Shown piece after piece: positions 31,733 through 39,044 of a DNA stretch of 64,000 nt (positions within the stretch are counted from its first letter, which is position 1; the number at the start of each line of letters is the position of its first letter). The notes beneath the pieces are model-generated. The model worked only from the letters and a program-made list of their open reading frames with translations, had not been told where the DNA came from and searched no databases. Origin of the DNA: Alphaproteobacteria bacterium (GTDB taxonomy: Bacteria > Pseudomonadota > Alphaproteobacteria > UBA828); NCBI GenBank assembly GCA_963422645.2, contig CAXXVO010000008.1, positions 626,510 through 690,509 of the forward strand, in the 5' to 3' direction. Position numbers and translations under genes: made by a program.

Positions 31733-32866
31733 ATGTCGCTGGGACAGACACTATTCAGATTCTGGCACGCCGTTCAAGCTGATCTTTTCCCCTGGCTTGA
31801 GGAGGAACTCGGGCCGCTGGGCGAGAGGTATCGGCGTCTCATCACCGTGCTTGAGTTGACGCGGGTCGAGAGCTTCATTCCTCACTTCCATGGCCTGCCC
31901 GGCCGGCCGATCGAGGACCGGGCTGCGCTGGCCTGCGCCTTCATCGCCAAGGCTGTGTTCGACATTCCGACGACGCGCGCCCTGATCGAGCGCCTTGAGA
32001 ACGACAAGACGCTACGCCGTCTGTGCGGCTGGACCTATGCCGCAGAGATCCCGAGCGAGGCGACCTTCTCGCGGGCGTTTGCAGAGTTCTCCGAGAGTGC
32101 GTTGCCCGCTCGCGTGCACGAGGCGCTGATCGAGAAGACCATGGGGGAGCATCTGGTCGGGCACATCTCGCGCGACGCAACCGCGATCGAGGCGCGCGAG
32201 AAGCCTCAGCCCAAGCCCAAGGCGGAGAAGCCGAAGCGCAAGCGCGGCCGCCCGCGCAAGGGCGAGGAGCGGCCCAGGGAGCGCCGCCGGGTGCAGCGCC
32301 AGCTCAAGATGACCCTGCCGCAGATGCTCGACGATCTGCCCAAGGCCTGCGATGTCGGCACCAAGCGCAACGCCAAGGGCCATACCGTCTCCTGGATCGG
32401 ATACAAGCTGCACATCGACGCCGCCGACGGCGGCATCCCGATCAGCTGCATCCTCACCTCCGCCTCGCTGCACGACAGCCAAGTCGCGATCCCGCTGGCG
32501 ACCATGACCGCCGAACGCGTGACCAACCTCTACGATCTCATGGACGCAGCCTACGACACGCCCGAGATCGGCTGGCACAGCTACCTCCTCGGCCATGTCC
32601 CGATCATCGACATCAATCCCCGCGACAAGGACTTCAAGGAGGAACTGGCGCAGGAAGCCAAGGCGCAAAGCCGCTTACGCCATGGCCACCCGGCGGACGA
32701 GCGTTACAACGAGCGCTCGAACGTCGAGCGCGTCAACGCCGGGCTCAAGGACAACTGCGGTGGTGGCCGCCATGTCCGCGTGCGCGGCCACGCCAAGGTC
32801 TATTGCCATGCGATGTTCGGCATTCTGGTCCTGACCGTCGATCAGTTGATGCGCCTGCTGACCTGA
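31733..32866 (+). CDS. DDE transposase (IS5/IS1182-like)
   Basis: PSEATFSR, SRDATAI, GYKLH, MDAAYD, YNERSNVERVN. Confidence 0.9.
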   Translation: MSLGQTLFRFWHAVQADLFPWLEEELGPLGERYRRLITVLELTRVESFIPHFHGLPGRPIEDRAALACAFIAKAVFDIPTTRALIERLENDKTLRRLCGWTYAAEIPSEATFSRAFAEFSESALPARVHEALIEKTMGEHLVGHISRDATAIEAREKPQPKPKAEKPKRKRGRPRKGEERPRERRRVQRQLKMTLPQMLDDLPKACDVGTKRNAKGHTVSWIGYKLHIDAADGGIPISCILTSASLHDSQVAIPLATMTAERVTNLYDLMDAAYDTPEIGWHSYLLGHVPIIDINPRDKDFKEELAQEAKAQSRLRHGHPADERYNERSNVERVNAGLKDNCGGGRHVRVRGHAKVYCHAMFGILVLTVDQLMRLLT

Positions 32867-34620
32867 ACGCCGCCTCCGGTTCCGATCCCTGCCATGGCGC
32901 ATGCCTCCCGCGACGGGGGCGGGGAAAGCCGCGTCCGAACCGCGACGGGCGGGCTCGGAAAGTGCTCGAAACGGCCCTGCTTCCCGGAAAGAGGCTTATC
33001 CCTTTGCTTCCGGTTCGTCTAGACGCCTTGAGCGTCATTGATCTTCTCGTTTGAGCCGAGTTTCAGGCGGCAAGTTGTTGCCCCTTCCACAGGCGGTCGA
33101 TTTGATCGTCGAAGCGCTTGACGAGGCGCCCGAGTGCGGGCGGTGCGTTGTCGTCGAAGACCGCCGAGAGTGCCGGGCCGAGGACGCGGCGCTGGCTGCG
33201 GCAGTAGCACAGTGCCACGCGCTGTCCGGCCTCGGTGACGCGGTAGCGGTGCGAGCGGGGGAGGCGTTCGATCAGCCCCCGCAGGCGAAGCCGCCGCAGG
33301 TCATAGCTGGCACGAGCGGAACCATAGGCCTCGGCGTCTACGCCGAGCAGCGGCGCAACATGCTGGCGCAGGTCGCGGTTGGCGAAGCCCATGGGCAGAA
33401 GCCGGAAGATGAGCAGGGCGGCCAGCAACACCTGCACCCGAGGGTCGCCGAAGCGAAGCGCCGCCACGCGACGGTCATCGATCTCGACGGGGCGGTGCAA
33501 CTGCTCGAAGGTCTCCGCTCCCAGCGGGCAATCATGGCTGAGCCGTTGGACGCCCAACAGGCGTCGATTGGCGGCGAAGCCGACCTGCTTCAGGTCATCG
33601 AGGTTGCTCAGCCGTCTGCCGATAGCGAAGTCGTAGGTGTCGTTGATCACGGTCTCGGTGCGAAGCGCACGGCCGCCCTTGTAGTACTGCTTGATACGCG
33701 AGTGCTTGTAGTCCACGTGCAGCGACGGGATGACCCCGTCGGTGATGACGCGGGTGCGATACCGCGAGGGCGTGCGCCTGCTGACGCGACGATCGAAGTT
33801 CAACTGCACATGGTCGGGGCGGCCCAGGTCGAGGTTCTCGCGCATCACCTCCTCGAAAAGCACGCGGCCCTGGGCCGGGCGATCGAAGACATGGGTCAAA
33901 GCAAACTCCGCTTGCAAGATCGAGACCTCGTAGCGGATGTGCGCCGCCCGGTCGGCGGCGGTGAACGGATGAGGCAAGCGCGCCAGCCACTTGCGCAGCA
34001 AAGCCTCGATACGGGGCGCGCTCACCTCCCGGGCGATGGCCTGCATCGCCTCGGCGTCGTCGCAGCGCACGATGCCGTTGTCGAGCGCCTCGAAGCCGAT
34101 GCCGCGCTTCGTCAGTTGGCGCTTCACATACTCATGCCCGTTCACGCAGAGCTTCGCGTTGTACGGAAAGTACGAGCAGAACTTCACAAAGAGCGGGCCG
34201 AAGTCGTCGTCGACCAGATAGACGTAGTACTGGTTGACCATCGCGGTGCTCGCGACCAGCCACGGGTAGGGAGTGAACCGGTGTGCGCGTCGTGACGGCG
34301 CTCGGTGCGCACCACCCGGGCGCGTTCCTGCGCCTTGCCGATGTAGAGCACGCCCTCCCCGCCGCGCCGCTTGAGCAGATACTGCTGTGTGCGCTCATCC
34401 TTGCGCTCGCCGCGCTCGAAGCGGATCAGATCCAGCCCCTCACTTTCGGCGTAGCGTTCCAGCGCGCCGACGAAGTGCCGCGTCATCGGCGCCATCAATG
34501 CCGATGACGGTACCGGATGGCCGCGCACCTCGCGGAAGAAGTGCGCCGCGCCCGCCGGACTCTGCAGCAGCGGCACGTAGACGTTGAGATAGAGCCGGTC
34601 AATGCATTCAAGCTCCAGCG

Positions 34621-36327
34621 TCCTCATTCCCCGAGTAAGGCGCTGGTGGGCAGGCTCGGGTGGCCTTTGGTGATGGATTTTCTAGATTTGAGGTTTGGGC
34701 GCGGTCGGTCGGCCGTGTTGGCCGCCTCGGACCGGGCTTGGCGGGGGCGATGGGCGTGGTGTCGCCGTGGACGGGCCAAGCATGGCGGTTCGCGGGTCGG
34801 CCGCGGCGTTGGCAGCCTGGGCGGAGCGGCCTCAGGCCAAGAGCGGCGGTGGGCGGGTGTGGATGCGCACCCGGTAGCGGTCCAACGCAGTGCGCGCGAA
34901 GCCCGATGCGAAGCGCAAGACCCTCTCGCGCGCATGGCAGATCAGCCGGGCCAGGGTGTTGAGCACAAGAAAACGCAGCCGCTTGGGCCGGATGCGATGC
35001 AGCTCCTCGGGCAGGCCGAGGCGCTTGAACGCAGACAGCAGGTTGTAGAGCATCACGTTGAGGCGGAACCACGCCGCATTGGCACCGAACTTCTGGCTCG
35101 GCAGCGCCGCCGCCGCGAGCTCGTTGGCGAGCACGTCATGGGTATGCTCGACCGTGCCCGCCTTGCCGCGATGCCAGCGCAACAGATCGCCCGCGTCGCC
35201 GCCTTCCGGGTCGTCGCGGTTGGTGACGACACAGAAGTGCTTGACCGCCTCGCCGTCGGCGAACAGCGATCCCTGCCTGCGGCTGATGCGGATGGCGATA
35301 TAGCGAAGCCTGCGCACCACGCCATCCGGCTGATCGATCGCGCCGTCGGGCAGATAGTCGAGCACCGCCCAGTGGCGAAGCACGCCTTCGTCCTCGCGCT
35401 CCAAGTGCCAGGACGCCTCGGCCAGCCCCCGCATCCGCCGCAGCAGCCCAGGGCTCACCGGCACCGAGATCGCAAACCCCACCTTCCTCTGATCCAGGTA
35501 CACCATCAGAGAATGGTCGTAGAGCGCGCTGTCGGCGCGCAGAAAGACCCGCTCCACACCCTCAGGCAACGCTGCCAGCGCACGCTCGATCACACGACGG
35601 TTGCCGCTCTGCGCAGAGACGTTGCCGGCGCGGAACTCGTCGGCCACGATCGCATCCTGCTCCGCCCACAGCGCAACCACCGGCTGATAGCCCCGCCTGC
35701 CGTCGTAGCAGGGCGCAGCAGCCCGCTTGGACGAGGCCAGGATGGTGGCGTCGAGGTCGATCGTCGCCACTCTCTGCGGCGCACGCGCCTGAAGGTCCGC
35801 AACCACCGCCGCCGACGCCCGCGAAAGCGCACGCAGGCCCAGACCCTCCTCCCGCACCGCAGAGCGCCCGCCGCCCAGAAGCGGCAGGTCCGGCTCGTCA
35901 AACGTGGCCAGAAAATCCCGCGCCGTCTGTGCCGCAGGCAGCCCATGGCCCAGAAGAAGCCCAAGCCCGTCCTGGCCGCGTAGACGATCCAAGTCTTCGC
36001 ACGGCTCACCCCCGCAGGCCCACAACGCCAACAGGCTCTCGCACATCTCAGACGCCGACAGGCCACGCTTGCGCCGCTTGTACGGAACCGACCCGTCCAC
36101 CACCACCGCCGCGCCAGAGCTGCGAAAGTGCTCAATCAGCGCAGGCACACCTCCGTGCGACGTCACCGCACCAAGACCGACCTCGTGATCCAACTCAAAA
36201 TCCAGACGAGATCCCGACACCGAACCCCCCCCAACTCTCACCCACAAGGTGAAACCCTCAAACCCCATAACCCGCCAAATGCAAAGGTCAATACCTCAAC
36301 ACCAAAATCAATCCCGGGGAATGAGGA
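34621..36327 (-). mobile_element. IS1380-family element
   Basis: IRs TCCTCATTCCCC / GGGGAATGAGGA; 4-bp TSD AGCG. Confidence 0.9.
34832..36268 (-). CDS. IS1380 transposase (start uncertain)
   Basis: TSHGG, TIDLDAT, GYQP, FRAGN, LRADSA, WHRGKAGTVE motifs. Confidence 0.9.
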   Translation of the reverse strand: MGFEGFTLWVRVGGGSVSGSRLDFELDHEVGLGAVTSHGGVPALIEHFRSSGAAVVVDGSVPYKRRKRGLSASEMCESLLALWACGGEPCEDLDRLRGQDGLGLLLGHGLPAAQTARDFLATFDEPDLPLLGGGRSAVREEGLGLRALSRASAAVVADLQARAPQRVATIDLDATILASSKRAAAPCYDGRRGYQPVVALWAEQDAIVADEFRAGNVSAQSGNRRVIERALAALPEGVERVFLRADSALYDHSLMVYLDQRKVGFAISVPVSPGLLRRMRGLAEASWHLEREDEGVLRHWAVLDYLPDGAIDQPDGVVRRLRYIAIRISRRQGSLFADGEAVKHFCVVTNRDDPEGGDAGDLLRWHRGKAGTVEHTHDVLANELAAAALPSQKFGANAAWFRLNVMLYNLLSAFKRLGLPEELHRIRPKRLRFLVLNTLARLICHARERVLRFASGFARTALDRYRVRIHTRPPPLLA

Positions 36328-37685
36328 AGCGTCGTGTGCTCGTCCAACACTTCGGCGGCGGTCCGTGCTACGGTCATGCTCAGGACTCCGGTCGATGGGC
36401 TCCCCACTTGGCCAAGATTAGAGCCACCAACGCCACAGAGCGATCATGAACGCGGATCCGTCCGCAGAGCGGAGCAGTGACCGGAGTCCACCTCTCTCAC
36501 CGACGACTCCACATGCCTCGTCGGTCTGAGGCAAAGCCTCGCTAGATATTGACCTACGTACCGCAACGGTTTCATCCGGCGGACTCAGAAAATCACAGCG
36601 CAGCCCGGGCCTTATCCGGGCCTTCCAGCAGTAGGAAGGTACACAACATCGTGTGCTCCCGGAGCCAAGGGGATAAGCCTTCCCGGAAAATCGACCCGAC
36701 GACGGCGATCATGCGGCGAAACAGACTGCCCGCGCCGTGAGCCCAGCACATGCGGCCCACGCTCAGGGGTTTTGCAAGTGCCTCTAGATTTAGGAGACTG
36801 CCATCAGTTCTCCTAAGTGCTCCTTAGAGCGTCGTCGTTGTCCCGCGCGGTTAGCCAAAGTCAATATGTCGTCTTTCCGGTGGGTGTGCAACCATCGGAC
36901 GCATTGGTAGTCGGGGGGCAACGCGGAGCGCACAGCGTGCAAGCACGGCAGGGTCTCAATGAGCAAGGCGACTAGCCGGGCGATTGTCGTCTCAGAACGA
37001 GCTGAGTCTCGCAGGTCATCTCCGGCGGCGCTTCCGCCGCCGGATAGGCATGGGTCCTGCTCGGCGTCTCATTCCCTTGTCGGAGAACCCCTCACGTTGC
37101 TTACGCTCACCTGATCTGTGCCGCGAGCCGTCTGCCCCTTCTGAACGCCACCACGACGCCCCTGGGGTGGGTCTTTACACAAGACGATCCTCCAGCCATC
37201 GCGCGGTCTCTCAAAATGGGCGTCGGTAGCGCCACCGCCGATGGATCGGCATTGTCGCCTCGAGTTTGATACCCTCCTCGTTGCACCGCTGCGGGACCGT
37301 TGACCTTTCCCTTCGCCTCCCACTGTACTGGCGAGTCGATTCTGAAGATCCAGTGACCCGCCACCGGATCGACGACGATGGCGCATCCCTTGGCTCCAGC
37401 CCGCTTCCGGCCACCCTTACCGCTGCGCCGCAACGGCCACGCGGCGATGCTGCAATCTGTTGTGTCGAGCATCTCGCATTTGCGTTCTGCTCTCTGCATA
37501 TCTGTGCCAGCTGGGGCTCGCCGGCTCGTTGCTGGAAGAAACGCGCCGGTCGACGAGCCGACGACGCGCCCTTCGTCCGTGGTGTCGTCCGATGAAAGGG
37601 GTTGACCCCTCCCAACCAAACCAGCGGCTCAGTGTGCCCGGCGGCGCCAATCCGGGGCGACGAGCCACAACCAACCCAAGTCGTG

Positions 37686-39044
37686 TCAGCATTCCTGGCG
37701 TCGCCCGAGCCACGCCCCCTCCATCTCGGCGCGGATCCGTTCCGTCACCTTGCGGCCCTCGTCGGTCAGCCCTGACTCGAACCGCTTCCCGTCCATGAGG
37801 ATGACGGGTCCCACCTCCTCCATCCGCTCGTGCGTGACCTCCTTGCCGGCGAGGTAGTCTGGCCGCTCGAAGCCCATCACCTCGACCACCCAGGTTCGCA
37901 CCTCGCCATTCCGCCGCGCCTTGATCAGGAAGTCCGGCAAGCTTGGCCCGTGCTTGGTGCCTATTTCGAACACCGGCTTCTCCATCGTGAACTCGGTATC
38001 CGGGAATTCCTTGCTCAGTATCCACAGCGTCGTCTCGAGCGTCGAGAAGGCCTGGCGCTCGAAGTCCGAATCCACCGGCACGGGGCGGTGGACCGACACG
38101 ATGGGCTGCGCCCAGCCCCGCACGCACTCGTATCCGCGCTGCCTGGTGGTCAGCGCCACAACGCCGAAGAACAGGTAGGGGCCCGACACGGGGCGCCCAC
38201 CGATCGTCGGCCGCTTGATCCGCGAGACCACTTCGAGCTCGCCGTACTTGCTGGTTGCGGGCAGCGATCTCTCTCCCACGTGGCGTACCGGAAAGCACAC
38301 GAACCCTTGCGGCACATGGCCCTTCGGGAAGTTCTGCGCGGCTTCCCGGACCTGCGCATGCACGCGCCGCCGGTCCCAGCCGGTGCGCCACGGGAACAGG
38401 AGTTCGTCCAACGGGTGTCCGGGCGCGACCTCCATTGTCTTCGCCGCGGCGCGCATGGCATCCGTCCACCCACCGATGCCCGGTGCAGGCTCATTCGCCC
38501 GCACCCGCGTGAGGCCGGCCGTCTCCAGCAACCGGCACAGGAGACCCGGCAATGCGGGCATCCGCCGCCGACCCGGTTCCCTGTCCCCGTCCTCCCCCGG
38601 CGCCTGGAGCGGATCGGTCAGCGCCGTGCCGTCCTCGCCGGCGAGCAACTCCGCCGAATTGCCGCGCTTGCGGGCGAGCAGCGCCGCAAAATACCCCTCC
38701 GGCCGTATCCGCGCCGCCCGGCGCCAATCCTTCTCGGCGCGTTCCTCGCGGCTCTCCCGGTAGAAGACGCAGTTCGCGAGGTGCCGCGGACGGTTCTTGC
38801 CCTGCAGGACTCGCCACGAGTACCCGGCGCCCTCCGGCATGCGGCACGGTGCAACGAGGGGATCGTCGTCGATGTCGATCCGGCAGTCGCACCGGAGCCA
38901 CAGATCGTTCTCACTCCCCTCTCTGAGAACGGCCAATGCCAACTCCGCCGCGCCGTCACGCAGCGGATCCTTCACCGCGTCGGCCTCTTTTTCCGTGAGC
39001 TCCCGCACGACGCGCAGCTTGGACTTGGTCACCAGACAGAGCAT
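37686..39044 (-). CDS. DUF1173-like protein (Zn-binding N-terminus, PD-(D/E)xK-like C-terminus)
   Basis: CDC...H...C; PVDSDFER; PDFL...VEVMG...DY...K. Confidence 0.65.
   Translation of the reverse strand: MLCLVTKSKLRVVRELTEKEADAVKDPLRDGAAELALAVLREGSENDLWLRCDCRIDIDDDPLVAPCRMPEGAGYSWRVLQGKNRPRHLANCVFYRESREERAEKDWRRAARIRPEGYFAALLARKRGNSAELLAGEDGTALTDPLQAPGEDGDREPGRRRMPALPGLLCRLLETAGLTRVRANEPAPGIGGWTDAMRAAAKTMEVAPGHPLDELLFPWRTGWDRRRVHAQVREAAQNFPKGHVPQGFVCFPVRHVGERSLPATSKYGELEVVSRIKRPTIGGRPVSGPYLFFGVVALTTRQRGYECVRGWAQPIVSVHRPVPVDSDFERQAFSTLETTLWILSKEFPDTEFTMEKPVFEIGTKHGPSLPDFLIKARRNGEVRTWVVEVMGFERPDYLAGKEVTHERMEEVGPVILMDGKRFESGLTDEGRKVTERIRAEMEGAWLGRRQEC

Follow-up and report, generated by a model that had tools for sequence, protein, structure and literature searches.

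IS10 is subject to antisense control by the RNA-OUT/RNA-IN pair, and the ends of the insertion sequence (IS) IS200 are short, asymmetric and hairpin-bearing. For IS200, a stem-loop in the 5′ untranslated region (5′UTR) of tnpA and an antisense small RNA (sRNA), art200, are described in the excerpted text of PMC4513863, and bridge RNAs and seekRNAs are described for the IS110/IS1111 elements in excerpts of PMC13626964 and PMC13396178. Here we report on the leader of a gene for a 533-amino-acid (533-aa) protein that belongs to a mobile element bounded by the tetranucleotide CTAG. The element lies on the minus strand of a 64,000-nucleotide (nt) stretch of DNA from an alphaproteobacterium (contig CAXXVO010000008.1, positions 626,510 to 690,509), which is called the window in the following. 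The leader contains a covarying four-way junction that ends at the start codon, and we propose, tentatively, that it hides the ribosome site of the gene and is opposed by a structured cis-antisense RNA.

In three respects the element resembles IS200 and IS10. A leader helix buries the ribosome site of the transposase, a small RNA lies opposite the 5′UTR (an antisense RNA that is only predicted in the present element), and the rest of the element is made up of one gene and its two short ends, which are asymmetric and bear hairpins. It differs from both in that the leader is a five-helix four-way junction of ~110 nt instead of one stem-loop, and in its protein, which is related neither to HUH/Y1 TnpA nor to DDE transposases. 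The Y1_Tnp domain of IS200/IS605 (which we take to be PF01797) was not found in Pfam scans of the window pieces of the protein or of 36 members of its family. Hairpins, a tetranucleotide and the lack of any duplication beyond it are further traits in common with IS200/IS605. This kind of device, a transposase leader with antisense control, is already known; neither the present fold, of this size, nor the element family is contained in Pfam, NCBIfam or Rfam.

A covarying four-way junction in front of the 533-aa gene

Read in minus-strand order from 36545 to 36378, the leader is composed of CTAG, a single C, the hairpin H0, AGACCGACGAG, the variable hairpin Hv, a linker, the domain closed by helix P1, and TGAGC, which is followed by the ATG. 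The junction core has a length of ~110 nt and comprises the following parts (bp, base pairs).

36383..36489, minus strand: four-way-junction core P1 to P5, supported by the match to covariance model R1 and by covariation
36479-36489 / 36383-36393, minus strand: P1, a perfect helix of 11 bp, GGACTCCGGTC (36383-36393) with GACCGGAGTCC (36479-36489)
36471-36475 / 36399-36403, minus strand: P2, which closes the four-way junction, GCTCC (36399-36403) with GGAGC (36471-36475)
36461-36465 / 36452-36456, minus strand: P3
~36440-36442 / 36431-36433, minus strand: P4
~36404-36425, minus strand: P5, degenerate in the window copy

The window sequence alone provides weak evidence for this fold. The whole leader of 181 nt has a folding z of -0.78 on the mRNA strand and of -2.42 on the plus strand, and the 109-nt core alone reaches -3.0 and -3.4. 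Strong evidence comes from the comparison of related sequences. The leaders of 80 genome loci align end to end, and inspection by eye reveals compensatory changes in their hairpins (GGCC/GGCC, GGTTAT/ATAACC, GATCC/GGATC, GGGTCC/GGACCC). The family structure (H0, a P1 of 13 bp, P2, P3, P4 and P5) was set by hand from this visible covariation and then tested against alignments in which the pairing partners had been slid along and against 500 shuffles. In a plain MAFFT alignment of 30 leaders, 87.8% of the cells were paired versus 29-48% for slid partners, and 16 pairs had changed on both sides versus 3-7, a number that none of the 500 shuffles reached. Model-fitted alignments lean towards the structure, which the plain MAFFT alignment does not. 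With this bias, the 45 matches of a model-fitted alignment were paired in 88.4% of the cells (28-50% slid), with 30 of the 36 pairs changed on both sides (5-10 slid; 0/500 shuffles). The corresponding values for 69 distinct rows from held-out sources were 88.5% (28-41% slid) and 34 of 36 pairs (15-18 slid; 0/500 shuffles), and compensatory changes were found in 411 cells of the held-out alignment versus 33-83 for slid partners; its 70 rows include three weak matches on the reverse strand. Covariation was seen in all five junction helices. RNAalifold, applied to the plain MAFFT alignment, recovered only parts of P1, P2 and P3.

The covariance model of the core (R1) matches the window on the minus strand from 36375 to 36493 with 97.3 bits (E 1.6e-19). 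Among 58 sources it detected the domain in 43 at E <=0.001, located on the gene strand and always ending at the start codon, next to one weak reverse-strand match. A second model (R2) found the domain in 67 of 89 held-out sources, again ending at the start codon, with three weak reverse-strand matches. Comparison of the aligned leaders confirms the structure, which is shared, with compensatory base changes, by well over 100 related elements of many phyla. None of the families of Rfam 15 matches the leader at E <=1, and ARAGORN reported no tRNA-like gene or tmRNA in it.

An original prediction for this locus, made from the letters of the window and a list of open reading frames (ORFs), had described an 11-bp helix, smaller inner stems, an 8-bp hairpin and a terminal hairpin, all of which can be read directly at their coordinates. 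Covariation among homologous leaders, which it had proposed as a check, is present in the alignments of 30, 45 and 69 rows. The inner stems are present as well; GGCTC/GAGCC and CTTGGCCAAG, however, turn out to be a local variant of the family hairpin P5. The opposite-strand motif, the mismatch bias and the broken state of the window copy, all reported below, go beyond that prediction.

The loop of P5 (window ~36410-36420) always reads TAnnnT on the mRNA strand of the closer relatives, with TATAGT, TAGACT, TATGAT, TAAACT, TACAAT, TAATCT and others as variants, and distant lineages have CGAA-type loops instead. A sense promoter in this loop was considered and rejected; the best -35-like hexamers are 19-20 nt off, and the motif is missing in the distant lineages (judged by eye). 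A strict scan of positions 36300-36800 for sigma-70 promoters and terminators returned neither.

Coupling of the closing helix to the ribosome site and its strand bias

The start of the gene carries three features that are tied to P1.

36386..36389, minus strand: Shine-Dalgarno sequence GGAG, part of the 3′ arm of P1 and located 8 nt upstream of the ATG in the window
36375..36377, minus strand: ATG of the 533-aa gene
36366..36374, plus strand: TGCTACGGT, an extended -10-like motif TGnTAnnnT that results from codons 2-4 (ACC GTA GCA)

The GGAG (36389 to 36386) within the 3′ arm of the long helix, just upstream of the ATG, had been recognised in the original prediction, and its placement is a trait of the family: the ribosome site is found inside the 3′ arm of P1 in all lineages. 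The spacer between GGAG and ATG measures 5-8 nt across the leaders, or 8-10 nt where the gene is one codon shorter. An alignment-free search of 114 unique leaders placed the end of P1 mostly 1-6 nt (1-12 nt overall) before the start codon, with a mean score of 11.0 versus 5.7 when the 5′ part was shuffled.

Codons 2-4 have the form Axx-xTA-xCA in most lineages despite variation of the encoded residues (N/K/T/S, V/I/L and A/P/S/T, respectively), and this pattern spells TGnTAnnnT, the extended -10 consensus, on the opposite strand. Of 47 unique gene starts from genome loci, 38 have the motif, as do 45 of 59 unique leaders of metagenome origin. Elsewhere in the same genes its codons are scarce, GTA accounting for 4.8% of Val, ATA for 3.0% of Ile, GCA for 6.1% of Ala and CCA for 7.0% of Pro codons. 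The distance between the motif and GGAG stays at 8-11 nt in most leaders, including the lineages with the shorter gene, which would place a start site, if located 7 nt past the hexamer, on the first bases of the P1 arm.

The mismatches tolerated in P1 provide information about the strand on which it pairs. In the alignment-free search, which scored G.U and A.C equally, P1 of the 114 unique leaders comprised 1,355 Watson-Crick pairs, 109 A.C or C.A and 26 G.U on the mRNA strand, and many of the latter are located at the doubtful outer edge of the helix. In the model alignment, nearly all of the 57 A.C counted overall fall within P1 and P2. Where a covarying pair alternates between A-U and G-C, the intermediate is A.C in eight cases and never G.U. 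An A.C on the mRNA strand corresponds to a G.U on the other strand, and it is thus the antisense strand on which P1 appears to be maintained. In the inner hairpins the two types of mismatch are in balance (82 G.U versus 57 A.C), as expected if both strands must fold, and the same holds for Hv (26 versus 24). In comparison with dinucleotide shuffles, the core has a mean z of -2.8 in sense and -3.6 in antisense orientation, the antisense value being the lower one in 32 of 40 cases.

Left end of the element and junction-less miniature derivatives

Upstream of the junction the leader contains two further hairpins.

36517..36541, minus strand: putative cis-acting left end, consisting of C, hairpin H0 (GAGGC-TTT-GCCTC) and AGACCGACGAG
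36499..36525, minus strand: variable hairpin Hv of 8 bp, ACCGACGA (36499-36506) / TCGTCGGT (36518-36525)

The arms of H0 in the window are GAGGC (36528-36532) and GCCTC (36536-36540), and one base separates the hairpin from CTAG. Its pairs are invariant in 30 of 30 leaders. The left-end motif is present in 60 of 80 metagenome loci and was kept in all six miniature derivatives examined, and contigs of sequencing run X5 were found that have only 36509-36548 in common with the window. The 5′ arm of Hv is the invariant ACCGACGA, a part of the conserved left-end run, and the 3′ arm varies by lineage.

A motif search in five multi-copy genomes located 6, 9, 22, 5 and 6 left-end sites, compared with 5, 6, 4, 3 and 3 matches of the junction model and 5, 6, 3, 3 and 3 full-length genes. 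All but one of the 21 junction matches adjoin the start of a 533-aa gene. The surplus left ends represent miniature elements that are devoid of the 3′ arm of Hv and of the whole junction. Three copies of 93 nt reside at different sites of one genome (L093, L098, L103), two copies have 127 nt (L100, L105), and one has 141 nt (L101); each begins at position 1501 of its locus on the matched strand. Each joins the outermost 30-40 nt of the left end to the outermost ~45-60 nt of the right end, with CTAG as boundaries. The differing flanks of the copies are indicative of movement, as judged from their sequences. Because the apparently mobile miniatures retain the ends only, the outer ~30 nt would constitute the cis-acting site, and the junction would be dispensable in cis. 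The outermost ~30 nt, i.e., the terminal hairpin and AGACCGACGAG, are thus probably a recombination site at the DNA level. One subfamily (L074, L077, L177, L190) has the left end repeated in inverted orientation ~40 nt further in, which would make a hairpin of ~25 bp that includes CTAA and H0.

A proposed ribosome-site-hiding leader with a predicted antisense RNA

By analogy with IS10 and IS200, we favour a leader that hides the ribosome site in combination with a structured cis-antisense RNA, an explanation to which we assign somewhat less than an even chance. The outer ~30 nt (CTAG, H0, AGACCGACGAG) would be the DNA site of action of the 533-aa enzyme. P1 would pair the ribosome site with the upstream CUCC, leaving the full-length leader mRNA poorly translated. 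The extended -10-like motif in codons 2-4 would give rise to an antisense transcript that begins exactly at the P1 arm, with a predicted 5′ end at the first G of GGCUCCGG, ~7 nt past TAnnnT. This RNA would form a mirror image of the junction and could dock via three complementary hairpin loops, thereby covering the ribosome site in a manner analogous to RNA-OUT in IS10 and art200 in IS200. The small RNA would gain stability from the antisense bias of the closing helix, and complementary loops on both RNAs could nucleate pairing, which would result in the balanced conservation of the three hairpins. Transcription of either strand, the promoter role of the motif and the repressive effect are what we infer; the proposal would account for the position of the junction at the start codon, its absence from the miniatures, the rare-codon motif, the bias of P1 and the balanced hairpins. 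Among the three readings that the original prediction had offered, i.e., an RNA sequestering the ribosome site, a guide-like RNA and a folded single-stranded DNA (ssDNA) origin, the first one fits best; the long helix does hold the ribosome site.

Several points weigh against this proposal. The mismatch counts stem from related sequences and are not phylogenetically independent. In the window copy, no -35 element is evident by eye 17-18 nt from the motif, nor a U-tract terminator downstream on the antisense strand, and the strict scan of the window leader revealed no sense promoter for the 533-aa gene. No RNA run was listed among the sequencing runs that contain the stretch, and three presumed RNA runs with the same species label gave no match on it. 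The motif fades in distant relatives, Rhodococcus having TATGGT without TG and Mycobacterium none, and A/U-rich early codons can be selected for an open mRNA structure, too. Finally, the known antisense regulators of insertion sequences do not need anything as elaborate as a junction of five helices whose joining bases are conserved.

The junction might also act solely in the sense transcript, in the absence of any antisense RNA, for instance by blocking the translation of read-through transcripts, as a sensor, or as a binding site for the winged-helix protein encoded by the same gene; the rare codons would then serve translation initiation or protein binding. The ribosome site within P1, the fixed position at the ATG and the occurrence of the junction together with the gene agree with such a leader, and the covarying pairs of P4 do show G.U in sense orientation (U.G 7 at 71-92; G.U 6 at 70-93). 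P1, however, tolerates C.A and not G.U on the mRNA strand (109 versus 26), which is the opposite of what selection on a sense RNA would produce, and the motif fits TGnTAnnnT base for base. We consider a role confined to the mRNA unlikely.

Boundaries, target and the possibility of a trans-acting RNA

The element has the following extent and ends.

33019..36545, minus strand: whole CTAG-to-CTAG element, delimited by same-genome copies that diverge exactly outside CTAG, by an empty site and by the breakpoints of X5 contigs
36542..36545, minus strand: left CTAG, target or crossover tetranucleotide
33019..33062, minus strand: right end of the window copy, AAACTCGGCTCA...GCTCAAGGCGT plus CTAG

The element comprises 1,816 nt without and 3,527 nt with an inserted insertion sequence (see below) and is flanked by CTAG on either side (36542-36545 and 33019-33022). 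The analysed sequence is the leader and left end of a CTAG-bounded mobile element, as originally predicted. An empty site in the same genome (L002) contains a single CTAG within a unit of ~170 nt that has the terminal inverted repeats (TIRs) GGCTTATCCCCTTG...CAAGGGGATAAGCC, and the window element is inserted at the corresponding CTAG. Contigs of run X5 diverge from the window at 33019 and 36547. In 10 multi-copy genomes, eight sets of copies lose their similarity exactly outside CTAG; for the other two the automatic comparison ended earlier, the copies themselves being different. The flanks outside CTAG are unrelated among the 5-6 copies per genome. One genome has six copies, all with CTAA as left and CTAG as right tetranucleotide; the fourth base of the left one is thus a part of the element.

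Across phyla, the left end of the family reads CTA[G/A][C/T]GAGGCnnnGCCTCAGACCGACGAG, and the right end consists of AAACTTGACTCA, ~20 nt, TCAAGGANT and CTAG. Neither terminal inverted repeats nor a duplication beyond CTAG were found when the family ends were compared across copies. Head-to-tail neighbours, full or miniature, have one CTAG in common (L013/L014, L046, L019, L034), which is expected if the CTAG of the right end can itself serve as a target or if tandem or circular forms arise. A term-based search of the open-access literature found no described CTAG-targeting family without inverted repeats.

The host repeat of ~170 nt occupies 36546-36690 and 32990-33018 in the window (TIRs GGCTTATCCCCTTG / CAAGGGGATAAGCC). 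Its empty copy (L002, 1490-1670) is situated on another contig of the same genome and shows 91% identity over 140 nt. The unit is probably a miniature inverted-repeat transposable element (MITE) or REP-like repeat of its own.

The element has several traits in common with the IS110/IS1111 systems of PMC13626964 and PMC13396178, as far as the excerpts of these sources describe them: a structured non-coding region in the element end beside the recombinase gene, asymmetric ends without inverted repeats, and a short core that the target and both junctions, as well as head-to-tail copies, have in common. It differs from them by the lack of DEDD (PF01548) and Transposase_20 (PF02371) domains, with nothing found in NCBIfam, by a 4-bp target with random flanks, and by a P1 that holds the ribosome site. 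With unrelated flanks outside CTAG, a long target for a guide is lacking, and no loops complementary to target or donor (about 10-14 nt of the flanks in IS110-type RNAs) or covarying with the ends were found in an inspection by eye of ends that are nearly invariant. CUAG follows P1 in three lineages and not in others (by eye). The analogy with the IS110 bridge RNA fails on the protein and on the length of the target, and the guide-like RNA is not supported, which leaves room for an RNA partner of another kind.

The junction RNA of either strand could act in trans as a cofactor that binds the 533-aa enzyme and participates in recombination as scaffold or guide for the ends. It would also serve the miniatures, loosely like the IS110 bridge RNA or the omega RNA of IS200/IS605. 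The complex and strongly conserved fold with its conserved joining bases, the location of the junction in a non-coding end next to a recombinase gene, and the numerous junction-less miniatures beside full copies (one genome has 22 left ends and 3 genes) are consistent with a cofactor, and a run-on antisense transcript would bear the complement of the left end. Against it stand a target that is confined to CTAG with unrelated flanks, the tight coupling of P1 and the ribosome site, which a cofactor leaves unexplained, and the protein, in which domain and structure searches recognised no RNA-binding domain; moreover, the ends are nearly invariant, so that covariation with the loops cannot be seen. 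A trans-acting cofactor appears rather unlikely. The far-reaching version, in which the junction RNA is the obligatory partner of a new class of transposases, a Rep_trans-like or TBP-fold tyrosine nuclease cutting at CTAG, seems quite improbable. Its likeliest form would be an antisense transcript from the P1 arm through the complement of the left end, scaffolding or guiding the enzyme on the ends and serving the abundant miniatures in trans.

The 533-aa protein and a possible single-stranded DNA role of the junction

The protein belongs to a very large family, with 10,897 clusters at 50% identity (E <=0.001); all of the 8,000 candidates scored in the first homologue search had E <=0.001. The family is multicopy and present in many phyla, and cultured carriers of an intact copy include Burkholderia sp. 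SFA1 (plasmid p3, L083) and Rhodococcus koreensis R85 (L114). Among 25 rows listed, plasmid copies were found in Burkholderia, Caballeronia, Paraburkholderia, Rhodococcus and Mycobacterium. The annotated ones are designated as hypothetical or uncharacterized protein, the exceptions among these rows being a weak ArsR-regulator match and short fragment matches under other genes. An intact 533-aa relative (P0001) shows 99% identity over the C-terminal query of 392 aa. The window pieces of the protein match no Pfam or NCBIfam family, and Pfam searches with 36 diverse members yielded only weak winged-helix matches at E <=1. The best match of a sequence search against PDB had an E of 0.47, Foldseek found nothing in PDB at E <=0.001, and the ESM Atlas contained "hypothetical protein" clusters only.

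A first structural model based on 20 close homologues was unusable (pLDDT 46), whereas the model from the 36 diverse members reached a pLDDT of 86.5. Residues 382-510 are predicted to form a winged helix of the PadR/MarR type (Z up to 9.7, rmsd 2.8 A, 90 residues aligned), and residues 1-378 a pseudo-symmetric double beta-saddle reminiscent of the TATA-binding protein (TBP), with TBP 1mp9_B as best structural match (Z 9.0, rmsd 4.2 A, 182/189 residues aligned). K325-x-Y327-x-K329, R335-x-E337, D23 and D152 are nearly invariant; the two motifs would be placed on adjacent strands of the modelled sheet, and the two Asp residues on others. According to the excerpted text of PMC4797284, R-x-Y-x-K, R-x-E and Asp metal ligands are described for Rep_trans. 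Resemblances of the modelled protein to the Rep_trans rolling-circle initiators and MOBT relaxases of this source are a large pseudo-symmetric beta-sheet with a basic-x-Tyr-x-Lys and an Arg-x-Glu on neighbouring strands and, as in the plasmid origins that it describes, a hairpin adjoining the cut site. The differences are that no sequence-family match exists (profile PF02486 had none at E <=1 in the 36 members and none in the genome of the window), that the best structural matches are TBP and not Rep, and that the element is chromosomal, multicopy and CTAG-inserting, with a junction that is not needed in cis. Foldseek retrieved the Rep_trans structure 4cij_C at E 0.033, which is not among the 50 listed rows of the VIA structure comparison. 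This model-based likeness is a lead.

If the enzyme were a Rep_trans-like nickase and the element moved via single-stranded DNA, the junction could be a structure of the bottom strand, i.e., an origin for priming or for the complementary strand, or else an additional site of protein binding. The weak resemblance in fold and motifs (4cij_C at E 0.033; K-x-Y-x-K, R-x-E) would suit such a role, the mismatch bias of P1 would equally fit G.T in bottom-strand DNA, and both strands fold. However, derivatives devoid of the junction have reached several sites, the junction itself is firmly tied to the ribosome site and the start codon, and Pfam Rep_trans lacks a match at E <=1 in the 36 members. We regard a single-stranded DNA structure as decidedly improbable. 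A single-strand origin (sso) of rolling-circle replicons, a folded non-coding region that the mobile DNA needs in cis and in one orientation, was rejected, given that six derivatives of 93-141 nt at different sites do without the junction and that one genome has 22 left ends next to 4 junctions. With mobile derivatives that lack it and a position next to the gene in 20 of 21 cases, a folded ssDNA origin in cis, as had been considered originally, is unlikely for the ~110-nt junction. Something else altogether is left with the remaining probability.

State of the window copy and its surroundings

The element of the window is interrupted, as seen from two features downstream of the leader.

34617..36327, minus strand: IS1380-family insertion sequence of 1,711 nt, inserted within codon 16/17 and not part of the element
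33063..34616, minus strand: remainder of the 533-aa gene, frameshifted by two inserted nt near 34276

The ATG opens a frame of 16 codons (MTVARTAAEVLDEHTT), which is then cut by the insertion sequence. The IS1380 transposase (34832-36268) matches NF033539 with an E of 2.7e-70, and the insertion is bounded by the inverted repeats CGGGGAATGAGGA, with ACGC as an apparent duplication of 4 bp. In a contig of run X5, position 34616 is directly followed by 36328; this contig lacks the 1,711 nt and represents the uninterrupted form in the same flank. In comparison with this contig and with the frame of P0001, the window copy has two extra bases at ~34276. It is a dead relic that has been broken twice; its leader and first 16 codons are intact.

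An ORF of 452 aa (37686-39044, minus strand) without Pfam or NCBIfam match adjoins the element. Just past the right flank, 32500-32880 resembles by eye the 3′ part of an IS4/IS5-type transposase gene. Together with IS1380 and the TIR-bounded repeat, this remnant would make the region a patch of nested mobile DNA.

Significance for the family

The elements described here constitute a very large family that is multicopy in many phyla and still unannotated. Their leader is a well-defined, strongly covarying RNA or DNA motif, which is usable in RNA-family libraries to find and orient the elements. If its RNA were a cofactor of the enzyme, the family would contain a new RNA-assisted recombinase, and an obligatory partnership would represent a second, independent invention of RNA-assisted transposition outside IS110 and IS200/IS605. 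If the antisense proposal that we favour is true, the logic of self-restraint known from IS10 and IS200 extends to a new class of transposons.

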